Positions 3,823 through 62,035 of a stretch of DNA of 64,000 bases are shown piece after piece. The stretch lies in the NCBI RefSeq assembly GCF_055900595.2, contig NZ_CM148325.1. One strand, 5' to 3'. Made by a program: the position numbers and the translations under genes. The notes below the pieces were generated by a model. It saw only the letters and a list, made by a program, of their open reading frames with translations, searched no databases and was not told the origin of the DNA. The stretch's first letter is position 1. The number at the start of each line of letters is the position of its first letter.

Positions 3823-5151
3823 CTGATGAATCCCCTAATGATTTTGGTAAAAATCATTAAGTTAAGGTGGATACACATCTTGTCATATGATCAAATGGTT
3901 TCGCCAAAAATCAATAATCAGACAACAAAATGTGCGAACTCGATATTTTACACGACTCTCTTTACCAATTCTGCCCCGAATTACACTTAAAACGACTCAA
4001 CAGCTTAACGTTGGCTTGCCACGCCTTACTTGACTGTAAAACTCTCACTCTTACCGAACTTGGCCGTAACCTGCCAACCAAAGCGAGAACAAAACATAAC
4101 ATCAAACGAATCGACCGATTGTTAGGTAATCGTCACCTCCACAAAGAGCGACTCGCTGTATACCGTTGGCATGCTAGCTTTATCTGTTCGGGCAATACGA
4201 TGCCCATTGTACTTGTTGACTGGTCTGATATCCGTGAGCAAAAACGGCTTATGGTATTGCGAGCTTCAGTCGCACTACACGGTCGTTCTGTTACTCTTTA
4301 TGAGAAAGCGTTCCCGCTTTCAGAGCAATGTTCAAAGAAAGCTCATGACCAATTTCTAGCCGACCTTGCGAGCATTCTACCGAGTAACACCACACCGCTC
4401 ATTGTCAGTGATGCTGGCTTTAAAGTGCCATGGTATAAATCCGTTGAGAAGCTGGGTTGGTACTGGTTAAGTCGAGTAAGAGGAAAAGTACAATATGCAG
4501 ACCTAGGAGCGGAAAACTGGAAACCTATCAGCAACTTACATGATATGTCATCTAGTCACTCAAAGACTTTAGGCTATAAGAGGCTGACTAAAAGCAATCC
4601 AATCTCATGCCAAATTCTATTGTATAAATCTCGCTCTAAAGGCCGAAAAAATCAGCGCTCGACACGGACTCATTGTCACCACCCGTCACCTAAAATCTAC
4701 TCAGCGTCGGCAAAGGAGCCATGGATTCTAGCAACTAACTTACCTGTTGAAATTCGAACACCCAAACAACTTGTTAATATCTATTCGAAGCGAATGCAGA
4801 TTGAAGAAACCTTCCGAGACTTGAAAAGTCCTGCCTACGGACTAGGCCTACGCCATAGCCGAACGAGCAGCTCAGAGCGTTTTGATATCATGCTGCTAAT
4901 CGCCCTGATGCTTCAACTAACATGTTGGCTTGCGGGCGTTCATGCTCAGAAACAAGGTTGGGACAAGCACTTCCAGGCTAACACAGTCAGAAATCGAAAC
5001 GTACTCTCAACAGTTCGCTTAGGCATGGAAGTTTTGCGGCATTCTGGCTACACAATAACAAGGGAAGACTCACTCGTGGCTGCAACCCTGCTTACTCAAA
5101 ATCTATTCACACATGGTTACGTTTTGGGGAAATTATGAGGGGATCTCTCAG
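3823..5151 (+). mobile_element. IS10 insertion sequence (1329 bp)
   Basis: Begins CTGATGAATCCCCTAATGATTTTGGTAAAAATCATTAAG and ends ...ATTATGAGGGGATCTCTCAG (IS10 outside/inside ends from memory); length 1329 bp; encodes the transposase. Confidence 0.9.
3930..5138 (+). CDS. IS10 transposase
   Basis: 402-aa [70 protein letters not shown]..., recognised as Tn10/IS10 transposase. Confidence 0.9.
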
Positions 5152-7720: not shown

Positions 7721-8175
7721 TACGCCTCCTGCTTGTCGCGGAGCAGCTGGAACTCGCAGCTCTGCGGAATAGTCAGGTGGCAGCCAATATTCATCGCCCA
7801 GGCTTCAACCTTACACAGGAAGACATACATCTCTCCGGTATCAAGATTGGAGGTATGGCGTAACGACTGGATAGTGGTGATATCACCGGTTACGACATCA
7901 ACCAGGTCTTTGGTTTCATAACCGAGATATGTGTGTTTGAGAGCATCTTTTACCCAAGCTGGAGTGGCGAACGTTTTACCCCTGCTGATGAGGTATTCAC
8001 TGATTTCGCTGTACCACATGTGGCTGAGTGCATTCTGGGAAAGACTGCGTTTCTCACGCCACGGTTTAAGCACCAGGCGAAAGCATTTGCCCTCCTCCAG
8101 ATAAGGCTGGATCTGCCGACCGATAGCGGTGAAGTTGCCGCGATGTAATTTGATGCCGTCTTGTGAGAGGTTCAC
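7720..8175 (-). CDS. ybcN: NinB-family recombination protein
   Basis: 151-aa ORF (GTG start) [55 protein letters not shown]..., recognised as DLP12 YbcN. Confidence 0.85.
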
Positions 8176-8208
8176 GCTTCCCCTCCGCAGAGGTCAAACG
8201 TTGGATGC

Positions 8209-8333
8209 AAAAAAACGCAGGTGCATTTCTGCATCTGTGAAGGGAGAAGAGAGTTTGGATTGTATGTGCGCATAAACGTCCCCGTTTAGCGCAGAAGTCA
8301 CCGGAGTTGTTCAGGCTCCGATGACATGATTAT
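8209..8333. repeat. Direct repeat A (about 125 bp) flanking the accessory cassette
   Basis: AAAAAAACGCAGGTGCATTTCTGCATCTGTGAAGGGAGAAGAGAGTTTGGATTGT... aligns with 10596..10720, with about 16 substitutions and one 1-bp indel by manual alignment. Confidence 0.75.
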
Positions 8334-8359
8334 GGCGGGTTGATTATTGAAAATCAAAG

Positions 8360-9037
8360 TTAATCGTACGAGTCGAGTATGTTCTGAAACGCCCAGCCAT
8401 CCTCCTTAGGAACACAAGACAGAATCGAATGAATTAGATCCCCTGCGGAAAGAAGTAACCCTTCTTGCCCTTCAAGAAAATAACGCCATTTAGGTCCATG
8501 AAACAGATTGTTCCGTAACCGGAAACAAACGAACAAGCACACTGCAAGCTGAGTCTCAGGCTCGGTTGTCATAGCTTGCATGGCTGAAAAACAGTCATCT
8601 CTCGCCTTTTGAGAGGTGTGGTGTAATTCCCCGCATAGGCTTTCAAACTTGCTTTTATCATTTACATAGCGTTCTGAAAAAAAATCGTATGTACACTTGA
8701 GAACCCCCAGATCCACAACCTCCATTTGCAAAAGACGATTGGCATATTTCGCACTTTTGCCTTGCCCCCCAGCGCAATTAAGAAGTAGAGACTCGAAGAA
8801 AGAGAAGTACAAAAAATAACGATTAACGGCGGTAAGGATAGATGGGGTAATCCTGCCTTCTGCATTAATCAACTCGTCAAATTCTGATGAAAAATCCAAC
8901 TGTTCATCCTTTTCCATTATATTCGGCCATTTATTGATATTGCACATCAGTCGCTCTTGGCAATGACAGGTTTGCTCTCGGTAATGTCTCAAACGCCCCA
9001 AAAAGTAGTCTCGCAAATGCTCTAGTTGCTCGCGCAT
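8360..9037 (-). CDS. Hypothetical protein with a HEPN-like Rx4H motif (possible abortive-infection RNase)
   Basis: 225-aa ORF; C-terminal region contains ...CLFVCFRLRNNLFHGPKWRYF... (R-x4-H); AT-rich; weak RBS, start codon uncertain (alternative MEKDEQLDF...). Confidence 0.45.
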   Translation of the reverse strand: MREQLEHLRDYFLGRLRHYREQTCHCQERLMCNINKWPNIMEKDEQLDFSSEFDELINAEGRITPSILTAVNRYFLYFSFFESLLLNCAGGQGKSAKYANRLLQMEVVDLGVLKCTYDFFSERYVNDKSKFESLCGELHHTSQKARDDCFSAMQAMTTEPETQLAVCLFVCFRLRNNLFHGPKWRYFLEGQEGLLLSAGDLIHSILSCVPKEDGWAFQNILDSYD

Positions 9038-9560: not shown

Positions 9561-10169
9561 CTATTGCAATCTAGCCTGACGCAAATGTGGCAATACCCTG
9601 CTCCACTTATTATCCTGCCAAGGCTGGAATTTTACATGTGCCGTTTTTCTGGCAAGGATTTCGCGCGCCTTATGTAGTATCTGGGGATATTCTTGCTCGA
9701 TAGAAGTAAAGCGACCGGCTTCGCGGTGTTCCGCAACCTGAAGAAGTGGAGTAACGTTCTGGCAGGCGGTTAACATCGTATCACTTGCTCGCCATAACCA
9801 AGCAAGTGTGCAAAGTTCGTTATCAGTGAATTGTTTTGTGATCGGGGATTGTTGAACTTCTCGATCGAGAATATCCAGAACCCAGCGGCGGAACTCTTTG
9901 GCTACAGGAGTTCGTGCAAACATGGCGATCAAATGGGCTCCGCGAAGGCTAAATACTCGAGACTCCTGCATTCCACGAGGGGTGGTCACTTTGACCACCC
10001 TTGTCATCATATCTGTAAATTCATCTGAGTGACGAGAGTAAATGCGCTGAACTGCTTTATCGTCCGCATATTCCAGAGCTAAACCAACTTCAGTGGCAGT
10101 AAGCCAAATTCTGTTATTGTGGCAAATTGGGGTAAACGTCGTTTTGTGGAATGCTAATTGAGTAGTCAT
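9561..10169 (-). CDS. Bro-N-like / phage antirepressor-family protein
   Basis: 202-aa ORF with N-terminal ...FHKTTFTPICHNNRIWLTATEVGLALEY...RGMQESRVFSLRGAHLIAMFARTPVAKEFRRWVLDIL...; good SD (GAGGTGA) 5 nt upstream of ATG. Confidence 0.55.
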   Translation of the reverse strand: MTTQLAFHKTTFTPICHNNRIWLTATEVGLALEYADDKAVQRIYSRHSDEFTDMMTRVVKVTTPRGMQESRVFSLRGAHLIAMFARTPVAKEFRRWVLDILDREVQQSPITKQFTDNELCTLAWLWRASDTMLTACQNVTPLLQVAEHREAGRFTSIEQEYPQILHKAREILARKTAHVKFQPWQDNKWSRVLPHLRQARLQ

Positions 10170-10331
10170 AGTATCACCTCATCAGGTTAACCATCACCAC
10201 CAACGACGCCAATCGACTGGTGGTGAACTGTGCAAGGTTGGCGTAACCGGCTACTCAAACCCGGCGCTCCCGAAGAAGCCCTCACACAGCCCACCATAAT
10301 TTGGGCGTAGCCGTGCTTAGCGCATAAAAAA

Positions 10332-10346
10332 ACCGCTTAACGCGGT
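10332..10346 (-). terminator. Possible rho-independent terminator upstream of the Bro-N-like gene
   Basis: Minus strand ACCGC-GTTAA-GCGGT followed by TTTTTTTAT; short stem. Confidence 0.35.
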
Positions 10347-10432
10347 ATGCGTTGAGTAGTATTCCGGGACGCCAATCCCGTGTGCCGATTTTGCGGCAAC
10401 GCACAGAATATAGCGCCGGATAAATAATGTCG

Positions 10433-10621
10433 TCAACCCTTGCAAATGGGTGGCGCGATGATCACTACTACCACTATAACCGCTCCAACTGTTGCAACTA
10501 CTTTAGGCCAAGACATCAAGATTTCCATATCACCTTTAGCTGCGAAACGAACAGAGGTTCCCATCTCTATACTGCCGAGGCCAAACACCGAATATAAAAA
10601 ACCGCAGGTGCATTTCTGCAT
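10433..10621 (-). CDS. Possible small hydrophobic peptide (about 31 aa from the internal start MEILMSWPKVVATVGAVIVVVVIIAPPICKG)
   Basis: Track ORF of 62 aa; internal ATG preceded by AAAGGTGAT; hydrophobic C-terminal segment; starts inside direct repeat B. Confidence 0.2.
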   Translation of the reverse strand: MQKCTCGFLYSVFGLGSIEMGTSVRFAAKGDMEILMSWPKVVATVGAVIVVVVIIAPPICKG

Positions 10622-10720
10622 CTATGACGGGAGAAGATAGTTTGGATTGTGTGGGCTCATAAACTCCCCGTTTGGTGCAGTAGTCACCGTAGTTGTTCAT
10701 ATTCTGATGACATGATAATT
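10596..10720. repeat. Direct repeat B (about 125 bp), partner of 8209..8333
   Basis: AAAAAACCGCAGGTGCATTTCTGCATCTATGACGGGAGAAGATAGTTTGGATTGT..., same orientation as repeat A. Confidence 0.75.
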
Positions 10721-10917
10721 TCCTATTGAATAGAAAAAATTAACACTACTCATTCTTATGACTAGAAAAAGCAATCATGCTAATAATCATTGTTGTTCCA
10801 GTTCCAAATGCAGCGAAATAATCACTAATATTTTTTCTACCGGTTTCGACTTTGATGCTATATTCTGCTAACACCTAACTAACACTACGTTTCACACAGC
10901 AATTACATGGAAATAAC

Positions 10918-11265
10918 ATGACTATCAAAGCGACTGACATAGAGATTCTTCATCGTTATGCTGAAGGGGTAATGGAACGTTCTAACCATCATGCAAAAAA
11001 TGTTGGTGCAGCCGCTCTTACATTGCTAGGAGGTGTTATCTGGAAAGCCCTGCCCGGCTCAATCGAGATAAGAACGTATAACGGAAGTCTTGCAAATATG
11101 GTGTGGTGGCAAAGCGAAAGAACATTAAAAAATTATGCAATCTCATACAACCATAATTCATGTGAAATTGAAATGAGAGATGAATCAGTCAAAGGTGCTG
11201 TATTATTTAGCATTTCCAACGAAACCACTCCAGAAAAAATATTATCACAGCTTTCTGAGCTTTAA
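10918..11265 (+). CDS. Hypothetical protein (115 aa), oriented against the surrounding early operon
   Basis: ORF MTIKATDIEILHRYAEGVMERSNHHAKNVGAAALTLLGGVIWKALPGSIEIRTYNGSLANMVWWQSERTL...; AT-rich; no family recognised. Confidence 0.45.
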   Translation: MTIKATDIEILHRYAEGVMERSNHHAKNVGAAALTLLGGVIWKALPGSIEIRTYNGSLANMVWWQSERTLKNYAISYNHNSCEIEMRDESVKGAVLFSISNETTPEKILSQLSEL

Positions 11266-12171: not shown

Positions 12172-13097
12172 AGATCAACCCCGTAAATCCAGTCTGTGTT
12201 TGTCAGGTCGAGTTTTGGTTTGCTGGCTGTCACGCCTGCCTGTTGCTTGTTACGGTTGATTTCGAGCTGGGTCCACTTGTCGCGGAGTTTGGCCGGACTT
12301 AGCACGTTACCGGACCAGAAGTTGTCCTGGCATGCCCAGCGGAACAGCACGCACATGTCGCGGTGGTTACGTCCGTCACGTTCACGCATCAGGCGGATAT
12401 CGTTAGCCCACCCTGCAAAATTCGGTTTTCTGGCTGATGGCGCGATGGTCTTCACCATGTCAAACATCCACTCTGCGGCGGTCAGGTCTTCTGCTGTCCC
12501 CCACTTGCTGCCGCTCTGAATCGCAGCATCCGGTTTCACCACAGGAAGGTCGTTTTCTGGCTGATCAGAGGATTCGCCAGAATTCTCGGACGAATAAGGT
12601 TTTATATTGTCTTTTGTTAGTTTGTCTTTTGTGTTTACCTGATTCGGGTAAACGCCTTTACCTGATTTGGGTAAACTTTTCTTACCTGATTCAGGTAAAT
12701 TTACCTCTTTCAGGTAAACTTTATTTTTCTTACCTGATTCGGGTAATGTTGACCATTCACTGACCACATTATTAATACCGATATTCCGCCCGCTCTGAAT
12801 CAAAATCCCACGCTTTACCAGAACACTTTTTGCAGCAGAACACTTGTGCGGTAATATCTCGGTCAATCCAGACAGTTGCTCGTTGCTCACCCAATCCAGT
12901 TTTTTATTAAAGCCATATGTTTTGCGCATGACAGCCAGGAAGACCAGAAGCTGGTGCTGTGTTAATCCGGCCAGCATCACAGCTTCCAGCAACTCATTTG
13001 CAATGCGCGTATAACCATCATCGAGATCTGCCACGCGCGGCTCCTTTTGTGCCGCATCCGGCACTGGAAAATTGAATATCTCAGCAGTGTTTGCCAT
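12168..13097 (-). CDS. O: Replication initiator O (lambda-like C-terminus, divergent iteron-binding N-terminus)
   Basis: Start taken at MANTAEIFNFP... (SD GGGAGGA upstream) inside track ORF 12168..13187; C-terminus ...WMFDMVKTIAPSARKPNFAGWANDIRLMRERDGRNHRDMCVLFRWACQDNFWSGNVLSPAKLRDKWTQLEINRNKQQAGVTASKPKLDLTNTDWIYGVDL matches lambda O. Confidence 0.85.
   Translation of the reverse strand: MANTAEIFNFPVPDAAQKEPRVADLDDGYTRIANELLEAVMLAGLTQHQLLVFLAVMRKTYGFNKKLDWVSNEQLSGLTEILPHKCSAAKSVLVKRGILIQSGRNIGINNVVSEWSTLPESGKKNKVYLKEVNLPESGKKSLPKSGKGVYPNQVNTKDKLTKDNIKPYSSENSGESSDQPENDLPVVKPDAAIQSGSKWGTAEDLTAAEWMFDMVKTIAPSARKPNFAGWANDIRLMRERDGRNHRDMCVLFRWACQDNFWSGNVLSPAKLRDKWTQLEINRNKQQAGVTASKPKLDLTNTDWIYGVDL
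12635..12746. repeat. Phage replication origin: five iterons (TTACCTGATTCGGGTAAA-like inverted repeats) inside the O gene, next to an AT-rich stretch
   Basis: Copies at about 12635, 12658, 12682, 12701 and 12730, each with TTACC...GGTAA arms; AT-rich run at 12600..12634. Confidence 0.65.
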
Positions 13098-34859: not shown

Positions 34860-35255
34860 CCGGATGCGGCGTGAACGCCTTATCCGGCCTACTAATCCGG
34901 TACCCATTGTAGGCCTGATAAGACGCGTCAAGCGTCGCATCAGGCATGGTGCGCCGATTACCGGATGCGGCGTGAACGCCTTATCCGACTACCAATCCGG
35001 TACCCATTGTAGGCCTGATAAGACGCGTCAAGCGTCGCATCAGGCATGGTGCGCCGATTACCGGATGCGGCGTGAACGCCTTATCCGACTACCAATCCGG
35101 TACCCATTGTAGGCCTGATAAGACGCGTCAAGCGTCGCATCAGGCATGGTGCGCCGATTACCGGATGCGGCGTGAACGCCTTATCCGACTACCAATCCGG
35201 TACCCATTGTAGGCCTGATAAGACGCGTCAAGCGTCGCATCAGGCATGGTGCGCC
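34860..35255. repeat. Tandem BIME/REP array (four units of about 100 bp, each holding two inverted REP palindromes)
   Basis: Unit CCGGATGCGGCGTGAACGCCTTATCCG...GTAGGCCTGATAAGACGCGTCAAGCGTCGCATCAGGC repeats at 34860, 34961, 35061 and 35161 with near-identical content. Confidence 0.8.
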
Positions 35256-44644: not shown

Positions 44645-45952
44645 TTATTCGATGCGTTCCCACGGAATAAGATTATCCATAAGAACAGCCAGTAAAATTC
44701 CGACCAGTAAGCCGTTACTGAGCAGAGGACGAAGCGTTAATGGAAGGTCTTGCAGATACACAGGCGGTAATGCCATTAAAAATATGCCGACAAATAACGG
44801 CAATGCGAGTCGATAAATATTGCGAGCGGTAAACGTGATTTGCTGGCTAAACACCAGCGCGGAAAAGAGTAAAGGCAGATAAGAAACCAGCATGACCGCG
44901 CTACTCACTGGTAAGGGGATACTGCAAAACAGTCGCGTGAGTGCCGGAACCAGTGCCACCAGCAGGCAAATAACGCTGCCATAAATAAACGAACGCCGCG
45001 TGTAATCGCCAGTCTGGGTTAATAAACCAATGGATGAAACAAACGGTGAAAATGGAATTACCGCCAGCGGCACGGTTATCAGCGTCATAAATCCGGTCGC
45101 CACAAAGCTGCGACGATAACGCGTATTCCCCGCGCCCTGTTGCGGATAAAAAACATCCGTGCCACGAATCGCACCGTAGGTATTGCTGATATTTACCAGA
45201 CCTGTAATCACCGCCGTCAGAATAATCCCCGGCAACAAAGCACCGCCACTGCCAAGCGGGAACCACTGCCAGTGCAACTCACCGGAAAGCGAGTGCGAAG
45301 AAGGAAAGCAAAAGTACCACAACAACCAGCCGGTTATGGTACCGACCAGCAGGCCATAACGGGCAAAACGTTGCGGCAGGAAGATAATCATCGCCAGTAC
45401 CAGGCACATCACCGCCACCGAGAGCGCGAACGGCGGTAACTGAATTTTAAAATTCGGGTCGGCTATGCCAAACGGCAGGCCGAGCATACCTTTGAAAAAG
45501 ATAGTGGTCAGCTGCGCGCCCAGCATCAACATAAACAAGACCATCACCGACGGCGTAAATAACCGCGCCAGGCGATGACCTAATCCGCTAAAACCAATCA
45601 ACATCGTCAGCACGCCAGAAATCGCAATCCCCACCGCCAGACTGGTAGCGATATCGTTGATCGGGGTCCCGCGCGATGCTTCGCCAAGGGTGATAGTAAG
45701 GATGGTTCCCCACCACAGGCCGCCCGGACCTTCCATAATAGCGCGACGATGACCGCAGAACGCCTGAGCGAAGCAGGCCAGTGCGGTAGCAAGAAAAGCA
45801 TATTGCGTGAGCGTAAGCAGGCTACTTTGCGGCAACTGAAAAGCAGAAAGTAGCGTAGGAGGAACCACAACAGTGTTGCAAAAAATAAAGAAAAACCACT
45901 GAAATCCTGATAACAGGCTTTCGCGGCTGACTGCAAAATTGAACATAAACAC
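44645..45952 (-). CDS. ybbY: Putative purine/uracil permease
   Basis: 435-aa polytopic membrane ORF; allantoin cluster position; exact start uncertain. Confidence 0.85.
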   Translation of the reverse strand: MFMFNFAVSRESLLSGFQWFFFIFCNTVVVPPTLLSAFQLPQSSLLTLTQYAFLATALACFAQAFCGHRRAIMEGPGGLWWGTILTITLGEASRGTPINDIATSLAVGIAISGVLTMLIGFSGLGHRLARLFTPSVMVLFMLMLGAQLTTIFFKGMLGLPFGIADPNFKIQLPPFALSVAVMCLVLAMIIFLPQRFARYGLLVGTITGWLLWYFCFPSSHSLSGELHWQWFPLGSGGALLPGIILTAVITGLVNISNTYGAIRGTDVFYPQQGAGNTRYRRSFVATGFMTLITVPLAVIPFSPFVSSIGLLTQTGDYTRRSFIYGSVICLLVALVPALTRLFCSIPLPVSSAVMLVSYLPLLFSALVFSQQITFTARNIYRLALPLFVGIFLMALPPVYLQDLPLTLRPLLSNGLLVGILLAVLMDNLIPWERIE

Positions 45953-61924: not shown

Positions 61925-62035
61925 TGAAATGCGATGTGCTGGTTTGTAGGCCTGATAAGACGCGCCAGCGTCGCATCAGGCATCCGCGCATAGCCGCCGG
62001 ATGCGGCGTGAACGCCTTATCCGGCCTACCAAACC
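61925..62035. repeat. REP/BIME element
   Basis: GTAGGCCTGATAAGACGCGCCAGCGTCGCATCAGGC ... GCCGGATGCGGCGTGAACGCCTTATCCGGCCTAC downstream of ybbN. Confidence 0.7.

Follow-up and report, generated by a model that had tools for sequence, protein, structure and literature searches.

A 31-codon open reading frame (ORF) on the minus strand of an E. coli lambdoid prophage, preceded by a usable Shine-Dalgarno (SD) motif and encoding a strongly hydrophobic peptide, was found to fill a 110-bp recombination joint between a decayed ylcH-ybcN duplicate and the promoter of an isrK-C4-antirepressor operon. It is most likely a fortuitous ORF or proto-gene, dispensable and not a type I toxin, a lack of function that we infer from its evolution. 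Because the ORF evolves much as unconstrained DNA would, and because most carriers have a broken or damaged copy, a dispensable recombination by-product is the most likely account, and we hold with about even confidence that it is an unselected reading frame with no selected function.

The ORF listing of the window (the whole 64-kb stretch of DNA analyzed) contains a 62-codon ORF at 10621-10433 on the minus strand, with the translation MQKCTCGFLYSVFGLGSIEMGTSVRFAAKGDMEILMSWPKVVATVGAVIVVVVIIAPPICKG, exactly as the original prediction described it. An internal ATG at 10528-10526 opens a 31-codon frame that is closed by a TGA at 10435-10433, so that ORF and stop together span 10433..10528. The peptide, MEILMSWPKVVATVGAVIVVVVIIAPPICKG, has a GRAVY of 1.69 and a best 15-residue Kyte-Doolittle mean of 3.31, and consists of a single hydrophobic stretch (residues about 10-28) with few polar residues on either side; both this single strongly hydrophobic segment and the overlapping-ORF character of the region had been correctly recognized. 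The SD-like sequence AAAGGTGAT (10529..10537) directly adjoins the ATG at 10528, and its GGTGAT pairs with the 3' end of 16S rRNA. When SD energies were computed as the pairing of the 20 nt upstream of a start with this 3' end, ATG 10528 scored -9.2 kcal/mol, as compared to -1.5 kcal/mol for the ATG of the 62-aa ORF, which is essentially without an SD. The former value is comparable to those of the neighboring genes (ant, -12.9; P, -12.2; O, -11.1; ybcN, -10.6 kcal/mol). The spacing between SD and ATG is equivalent to 4 nt from the AGGAGG core, at the short limit; such a spacer is short, yet usable. The internal start with its SD, as had been proposed, is the only credible start. Given a usable SD and ATG, the ORF is probably translated at some level: read-through of rightward early transcription (O, P and onward) would provide the transcript, and low-level translation would probably yield a single-pass hydrophobic peptide of 29-31 aa.

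The joint borders on one of a pair of direct repeats (8166-8357 and 10553-10743, 76-78% identity). Repeat A (8166..8357, minus strand) is the functional-looking original, in which a ylcH-like ORF of 33 codons (8273-8172) overlaps the GTG start of ybcN (8175-7720). Repeat B (10553..10743, minus strand) is a decayed copy of ylcH and the first ybcN codons, in which a CAG within the ylcH copy (ylcH') has become TAG and the ylcH stop has been lost. Loss of this stop lets the frame run on as the 62-codon ORF, the longest at this position, whose first 20 or so codons (MQKCTC...) are the C-terminal codons of ylcH in the ylcH-derived frame of repeat B. The corresponding frame of repeat A ends after 20 codons, in agreement with the earlier observation that it is closed there. 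The proposal that the gene begins inside repeat B holds for the 62-codon ORF only, as the SD-ATG start lies 25 nt beyond the end of the repeat at 10553. Homology to ylcH-ybcN stops at this position, and homology to the isrK modules of Stx phages and a Salmonella phage begins at about 10442, at the -35 box. Between the ends of these two homologies, at the left edge of the inserted module, lies a locus-specific segment of 110 nt (10443..10552, minus strand). It contains the SD together with 28 of the 31 codons, and its length is almost exactly that of one SD and one ORF. Repeat B is thus a ylcH-ybcN recombination scar, which the original prediction missed. The two repeats flank an insert of ~2.2 kb with the isrK module, a 66-aa ORF and a 225-aa ORF, and the pair looks like the footprint of a module insertion via recombination within ylcH-ybcN. 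Since the ylcH' copy carries different nonsense or frameshift lesions in each allele, this stretch evidently tolerates dead DNA. A weak terminator-like hairpin with a T-run (10603..10620, minus strand) lies inside the ylcH-derived repeat and is also present in repeat A.

Within the insert, the 225-aa ORF (8360-9037, minus strand) shows a resemblance to DNA polymerase III theta over its first 23 residues (phrog_1105, E = 7e-6); the theta Pfam match is below cut-off, and the remainder matches a PHROG without known function. Relatives carry a HEPN-domain gene and a hypothetical gene in the slot of this ORF, and the close relative 2022CK-00450 has an IS421 near ybcN.

On its other side the ORF abuts a complete P1-immI-like or Gifsy-1-like module at 9561-10436, also missed earlier. 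The strong sigma-70 promoter of the isrK operon (10407..10436, minus strand; TTGACG-18-TATATT, 10 of 12 matches) is followed by the isrK sRNA or operon leader (10326..10398, minus strand; Rfam RF01394, 60.7 bits) with a terminator at 10346-10332, a C4-type antisense RNA (10216..10301, minus strand; Rfam RF01695, 72.7 bits), an overlapping 36-codon ORF (10297-10187, minus strand) in the position of Gifsy-1 orf45 and P1 icd, and an antirepressor gene (9561..10169, minus strand) with Bro-N and P22_AR_C domains that matches the PHROG anti-repressor Ant. At a relaxed threshold, a sub-threshold match to c4-a1b1 (RF03163) at 10413-10361 overlaps the 5' half of isrK. The overlap of Rfam isrK, which has no clan, and c4-a1b1, of clan CL00128, on the same sequence suggests that IsrK may be the a1/b1 leader of a C4-type system and that the two Rfam families may describe one element. 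The TGA stop of the hydrophobic ORF sits within the -35 hexamer of the isrK promoter, which places the ORF wholly upstream of the isrK transcription unit: it ends before the start site and is not inside the unit begun at the isrK/c4 promoter.

Similar abutments are found elsewhere. Among 140 loci with the promoter/isrK pattern, four upstream contexts were distinguished, with the ylcH' joint accounting for 56 loci. In two others a long non-hydrophobic ORF uses the same TGA within the -35 box as its stop, and in the fourth the ninE stop lies 5 nt later than the TGA in TTGAC; the preceding ORF thus ends at the TGA within TTGAC in three of the four contexts, the ylcH' joint included. That preceding ORFs stop in or near the -35 box places the module boundary exactly at the promoter. 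The hydrophobic ORF was rejected as a recurrent partner of isrK promoters, as long, non-hydrophobic ORF ends occupy the other three contexts. DNA abutting the -35 box is, however, normally coding, and this leaves room for either a real small gene or a remnant at the joint, against the reading of the ORF as unselected.

Upstream of the joint, the O replication gene with its iterons (13187-12168) and the P gene (12171-11470) are on the minus strand. Within the O-like gene, 12630-12750 holds four to five copies of a ~20-nt, partly palindromic repeat (TTTACCTGATTCGGGTAAAC and variants), which are probably origin iterons, as in lambda. A Vch_cass14-family gene (10918..11265, plus strand) lies in the opposite orientation between P and repeat B, and the 518-bp stretch without annotated genes past it contains the ORF. 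The slot between P and the ylcH' scar has different cargo in each relative (the Vch_cass14-family gene in the window, PD-lambda-1/DUF4041 in PhiR26_1 and strain 3347558, and a NACHT-domain protein in strain 720632), and appears to be a hotspot for variable, defense-type cargo. Elsewhere in the window, an RNA-OUT (IS10) match was found at 3868-3937 (minus strand), and naRNA4/REP-type repeats occur at 34912-35190 and 61949-62026, three copies in tandem and one elsewhere.

Copies of the joint were recovered from two sequenced phages, 10 metagenome contigs and 46 IMG/VR contigs, and from about 300 complete E. coli genomes out of 5,426 (309 in one search and 299 in another). These carriers hold only three allele families: Ia, the 31-aa allele of the window; Ib, also of 31 aa (MEIVMSWPKVVATVGAIMVVVVIIAPPICKG); and II, of 29 aa (MEIVMFWPEVVVTVVAAMAVIIMVSIYWG), which has an in-frame 6-nt deletion. 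Exact 21-mer scans of viral and metagenome sequences and a promoter-anchored scan gave the same three families and no third deep allele, in addition to three unrelated chance matches. The frame is open in Ia, Ib and II, and the type I and type II cores both reach a 15-residue mean of about 3.1-3.3. Among the carriers of intact copies are E. coli 2022CK-00450 and B1S11 for the window allele, phage IdasGreatGrand for type Ib and phage PhiR26_1 for type II. The SD plus ATG (GCTAAAGGTGATATGGAAATC) is invariant in eight of eight independently aligned relatives and present in all 68 loci that share the promoter variant, loci that were found through the promoter and not through the SD. Indels of 1 nt and 4 nt set the alleles apart upstream of the SD, so that frames and starts vary among the longer ORFs (57-88 aa) reported by gene callers; only the final 29-31 codons are shared by all alleles.

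Many of these copies are damaged. The 301 carriers among complete E. coli genomes comprise 180 of type I and 121 of type II. A total of 176 of the 180 type I genomes, or 58% of all 301 carriers, were within one mismatch of an allele in which codon 7 is a stop (W7-stop, TGG to TAG), found in ETEC and in STEC O157, O26 and O103 strains. Of the 121 type II genomes, about half have a single mismatch; the three such copies that were read all had A19D, which falls midway along the hydrophobic stretch. Each of these lesions, the nonsense change and A19D, may, however, go back to one clonally amplified event, which lessens their weight in favor of an unselected ORF. As a separate observation, in strain P276M (L058, 659-808) PGAP has annotated the frame antisense to the type II ORF, as a hypothetical protein of 49 aa; this antisense frame is open in both alleles and is a Thr-rich mirror of the Val, Ala and Ile codons. 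The G-to-A change of the W7-stop allele also creates a stop in the antisense frame, and so cannot discriminate between the strands.

The pattern of substitution gives little indication of coding constraint. In addition to the 6-nt indel, 22 of the 87 aligned sites distinguish type I from type II alleles; these are distributed 6/9/7 by codon position, with no third-position or synonymous excess. By our reading of the aligned codons, about 13 changes between alleles are nonsynonymous and 2-3 synonymous, and by our count there are about 8 nonsynonymous changes and 1 nonsense change within alleles, against 3 synonymous ones; this amounts to roughly 3-5 nonsynonymous changes per synonymous one. At 25-26% divergence, the ORF is also the most diverged segment of the locus; the ylcH' scar diverges by 10-17% and isrK/C4 by 0-3%. 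The hydrophobicity of the core was assessed in neutral simulations that kept the number of transitions and transversions. Equally hydrophobic cores arose in only 1.2% of stop-free trials from Ib to II (p about 0.012) but in 40% from II to Ib (p 0.40), and with significance in one direction only, the argument from hydrophobicity is weak. Conservation of the frame, which the original prediction had named as a check, gives a split result: two deep alleles keep the frame open, but the commonest one has a stop at codon 7, and a coding-type substitution pattern is lacking.

The closest competitor to an unselected ORF, to which we give appreciable though clearly lower credence, is a genuine small phage gene, represented by the core of PHROG 4612, that would encode a dispensable single-pass inner-membrane peptide of 29-31 aa on the early rightward transcript. 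Selection would act on hydrophobicity and length only, for example for modulation of a host membrane protein or for exclusion, and as an accessory gene it would be lost in some prophage lineages. The strength of the SD, close to that of real neighbors, argues for such a gene, and so does the invariance of SD and ATG in 68 of 68 loci despite ~25% divergence of the codons that follow; by our arithmetic, the probability that the 12-nt SD-ATG would remain unchanged by chance at this divergence is about 0.04. The open frame in both deep alleles, the in-frame indel, the hydrophobic core kept across 25% divergence and the Ib-to-II simulation point in the same direction, as do the intergenic position and the gene-sized unique segment. 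The invariant SD-ATG, the open frame, the in-frame indel, the kept core and the gene-sized segment also count against an unselected ORF, and some real small membrane proteins do evolve fast while staying hydrophobic.

Chance expectation favors a small gene as well. An ATG with a 6-mer SD ahead of an ORF of 25-70 aa was counted 10 times in the window, against 9.2 times per random 64-kb window generated with a second-order Markov model. Once a 15-residue Kyte-Doolittle mean of 3.0 or more is also required, the 31-codon ORF is the sole case in the window and the 200 random windows contain none. Natural DNA is messier than this model: of six strongly hydrophobic frames in the window, two are clearly spurious, being alternative frames within large genes, one antisense within an 869-aa gene (25147-25281, plus strand) and the other out of frame within the gene of a 435-aa membrane protein (45279-45407, minus strand). 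Used as negative controls for hydrophobic-ORF calls, both overlap genes and are without an SD-ATG, unlike the 31-codon ORF. The SD-ATG scan also found a lipoprotein-like small ORF running from about 2174 downward on the minus strand, which we take to resemble the phage gene Rz1, embedded in Rz; a hydrophobic segment at 2385 would fit the N-terminus of Rz.

The database matches can be read either way. PHROG 4612, a 57-position profile of unknown function, matches the 62-aa ORF at positions 13-52 (E = 7.3e-13) and the type II 29-aa peptide at positions 29-57 (E = 1.7e-16); for the 31-aa peptide alone the match falls to E = 2.3e-3. The first two matches count in favor of a gene, but they imply that annotators have called the ORF before, and membership in the PHROG shows only that. 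The annotation of phage IdasGreatGrand includes the 31-codon version, and none of the genomes inspected has a PGAP annotation of the ORF. No homologue outside the locus was found by an exhaustive profile search of 1.84 billion representative proteins, nor among 2.9 million viral contigs or in the metagenome sequences; only alleles of the same locus were returned when 5.8 billion clusters were searched by word index and phages by tblastn. Nothing in Pfam exceeded threshold, Transgly_assoc (E = 0.023) and DUF4752 (E = 5e-4) both falling below cut-off, and a literature search with the peptide strings found nothing. The absence of distant homologues in these searches weighs against a genuine gene. 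So do the roughly neutral substitutions, the divergence beyond that of the adjoining pseudogene scar, the stop codon in 58% of carriers, the core Asp in about half of the type II copies sampled, the non-significant reverse simulation, the absence of a promoter of its own with at least 9 of 12 matches, and the short spacing of an SD that abuts its ATG. Of the small membrane peptide originally envisaged, what stands is the usable SD-ATG and the hydrophobic segment; what does not is a coding-type substitution pattern, and the commonest allele is interrupted by the W7-stop.

It is improbable, in our judgment, that the ORF is the 3' remnant of a longer gene for a membrane protein, formerly situated ahead of the isrK module. 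The peptide would then be the C-terminal transmembrane helix of this protein, the 5' part of the gene would have been replaced by ylcH-ybcN recombination, and the SD-like motif would be former coding sequence (K-G-D). Such an origin would fit the three other contexts, in which the 3' end of a longer ORF abuts the -35 box, two of them stopping at the same TGA, and the AAKGD frame upstream of the ATG, which is conserved in all alleles. A weak sub-threshold match to DUF4752 extends across the start of the peptide. However, no longer protein with this C-terminus was found in the 1.84 billion representatives or the 5.8 billion clusters, and the DUF4752 matches (E 2e-4 to 9e-4, just upstream of and into the peptide start) are probably chance: they are below the Pfam cut-off, limited to window-type alleles and straddle the junction of ylcH-derived and unique DNA, and they were treated as such. 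No mention of DUF4752 was found in the literature.

We give similarly little credence to a more speculative reading, in which the 110-bp segment would be a self-contained cassette placed before the IsrK/C4-controlled antirepressor operon and encoding a fast-diversifying membrane peptide of 29-31 aa that is toxic or active in exclusion. Such a peptide would explain both the high divergence with hydrophobicity kept and the W7-stop and A19D changes in the most successful prophage lineages.

Very improbable is the type I toxin-antitoxin system of which the original prediction had been reminded, in which a small RNA, either antisense or encoded nearby, would repress translation of a membrane-damaging peptide. 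At 31 aa, the peptide is a small (<60 aa) hydrophobic toxin-like product whose size and hydrophobicity resemble those of the Ibs, ShoB and TisB-class toxins, the small RNAs IsrK and C4 lie immediately downstream, and frequent inactivation (W7-stop, A19D) would suit a toxic product. The analogy nonetheless fails on every other feature sought: antisense promoter, antitoxin RNA family, structured leader and sRNA complementarity. No plus-strand promoter with at least 9 of 12 matches lies within or beside the ORF (10400-10700), and the best plus-strand candidate, at 8 of 12, is by our reading of the alignment not conserved in type II. No Rfam toxin-mRNA or antitoxin family matched even at E<=10, and no Pfam toxin family matched; a plus-strand antisense sRNA, for which a search had been suggested, finds no computational support. 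The leader and ORF fold no better than dinucleotide shuffles (z-scores of +1.09 for 10640-10500 and -1.01 for 10560-10420). IsrK and C4 are co-directional with the ORF, and their duplexes with the peptide mRNA, by a duplex-energy calculation that is crude on long RNAs, are no better than those with shuffled targets; they were rejected as base-pairing antitoxins on these non-significant energies. An RNA element in place of the ORF was likewise rejected, the folds being ordinary and no Rfam match falling within the ORF.

An unselected frame at the joint is an ordinary finding, and the more useful results are its by-products. A speculative toxin call has been cleared, repeat B has been recognized as a ylcH-ybcN scar flanking an inserted antirepressor module, and the neighboring isrK/C4/antirepressor operon has been identified. 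The locus also illustrates that a convincing-looking SD-ATG hydrophobic ORF can occupy a mosaic joint without detectable selection. If functional, the ORF would add one more small membrane protein of lambdoid prophages, beside the switch that controls prophage induction.

With the type I toxins Ibs, ShoB, TisB, ZorO, DinQ, Ldr and Hok the ORF shares a length of less than 60 aa, essentially one hydrophobic helix, a location outside annotated genes and a position beside small RNAs, but it is without an antitoxin RNA, a structured untranslatable leader, a family match or multicopy paralogues. The E. coli proteins of the KdpF, AcrZ and MgtS class are, like the ORF, of ~30 aa, with one transmembrane-like helix and few polar flanking residues; the 31-codon ORF has no sequence relationship to them and no conserved partner gene. 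PHROG 4612 is the same predicted ORF, already clustered from annotated phages, but it models a longer 57-aa call (MHLRFF...) that is without an SD and is frameshifted in the window allele. Repeat A has the same ylcH-ybcN arrangement as the cryptic prophage DLP12 of E. coli K-12, where YlcH is encoded by a 33-aa ORF upstream of ybcN. DNA alignment with K-12 ylcH-ybcN restricts the YlcH homology to codons 1 to ~20 of the 62-aa ORF, so that the 31-aa peptide is outside it, and ylcH' itself has a TAG in the window and frameshifts in other alleles. In the isrK modules of Stx and Salmonella phages the hydrophobic ORF is absent, and ninE or another long gene abuts the -35 box. An analogy with P1 for a small gene upstream of c4 was rejected, as the P1 neighbors simA to simC are divergent and unrelated. 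The hydrophobic ORF, being upstream of the promoter, is not part of the Gifsy-1 or P1 system. The DNA downstream of it, by comparison, has the same order as the immI operon of phage P1 (a1b1-c4-a2b2-icd-ant) and as Gifsy-1 isrK-orf45-anrP, in which IsrK activates translation of orf45 and the coupled antirepressor (PMC4825925): a promoter, an isrK leader with its terminator, a C4-type RNA with a short ORF, and the antirepressor.
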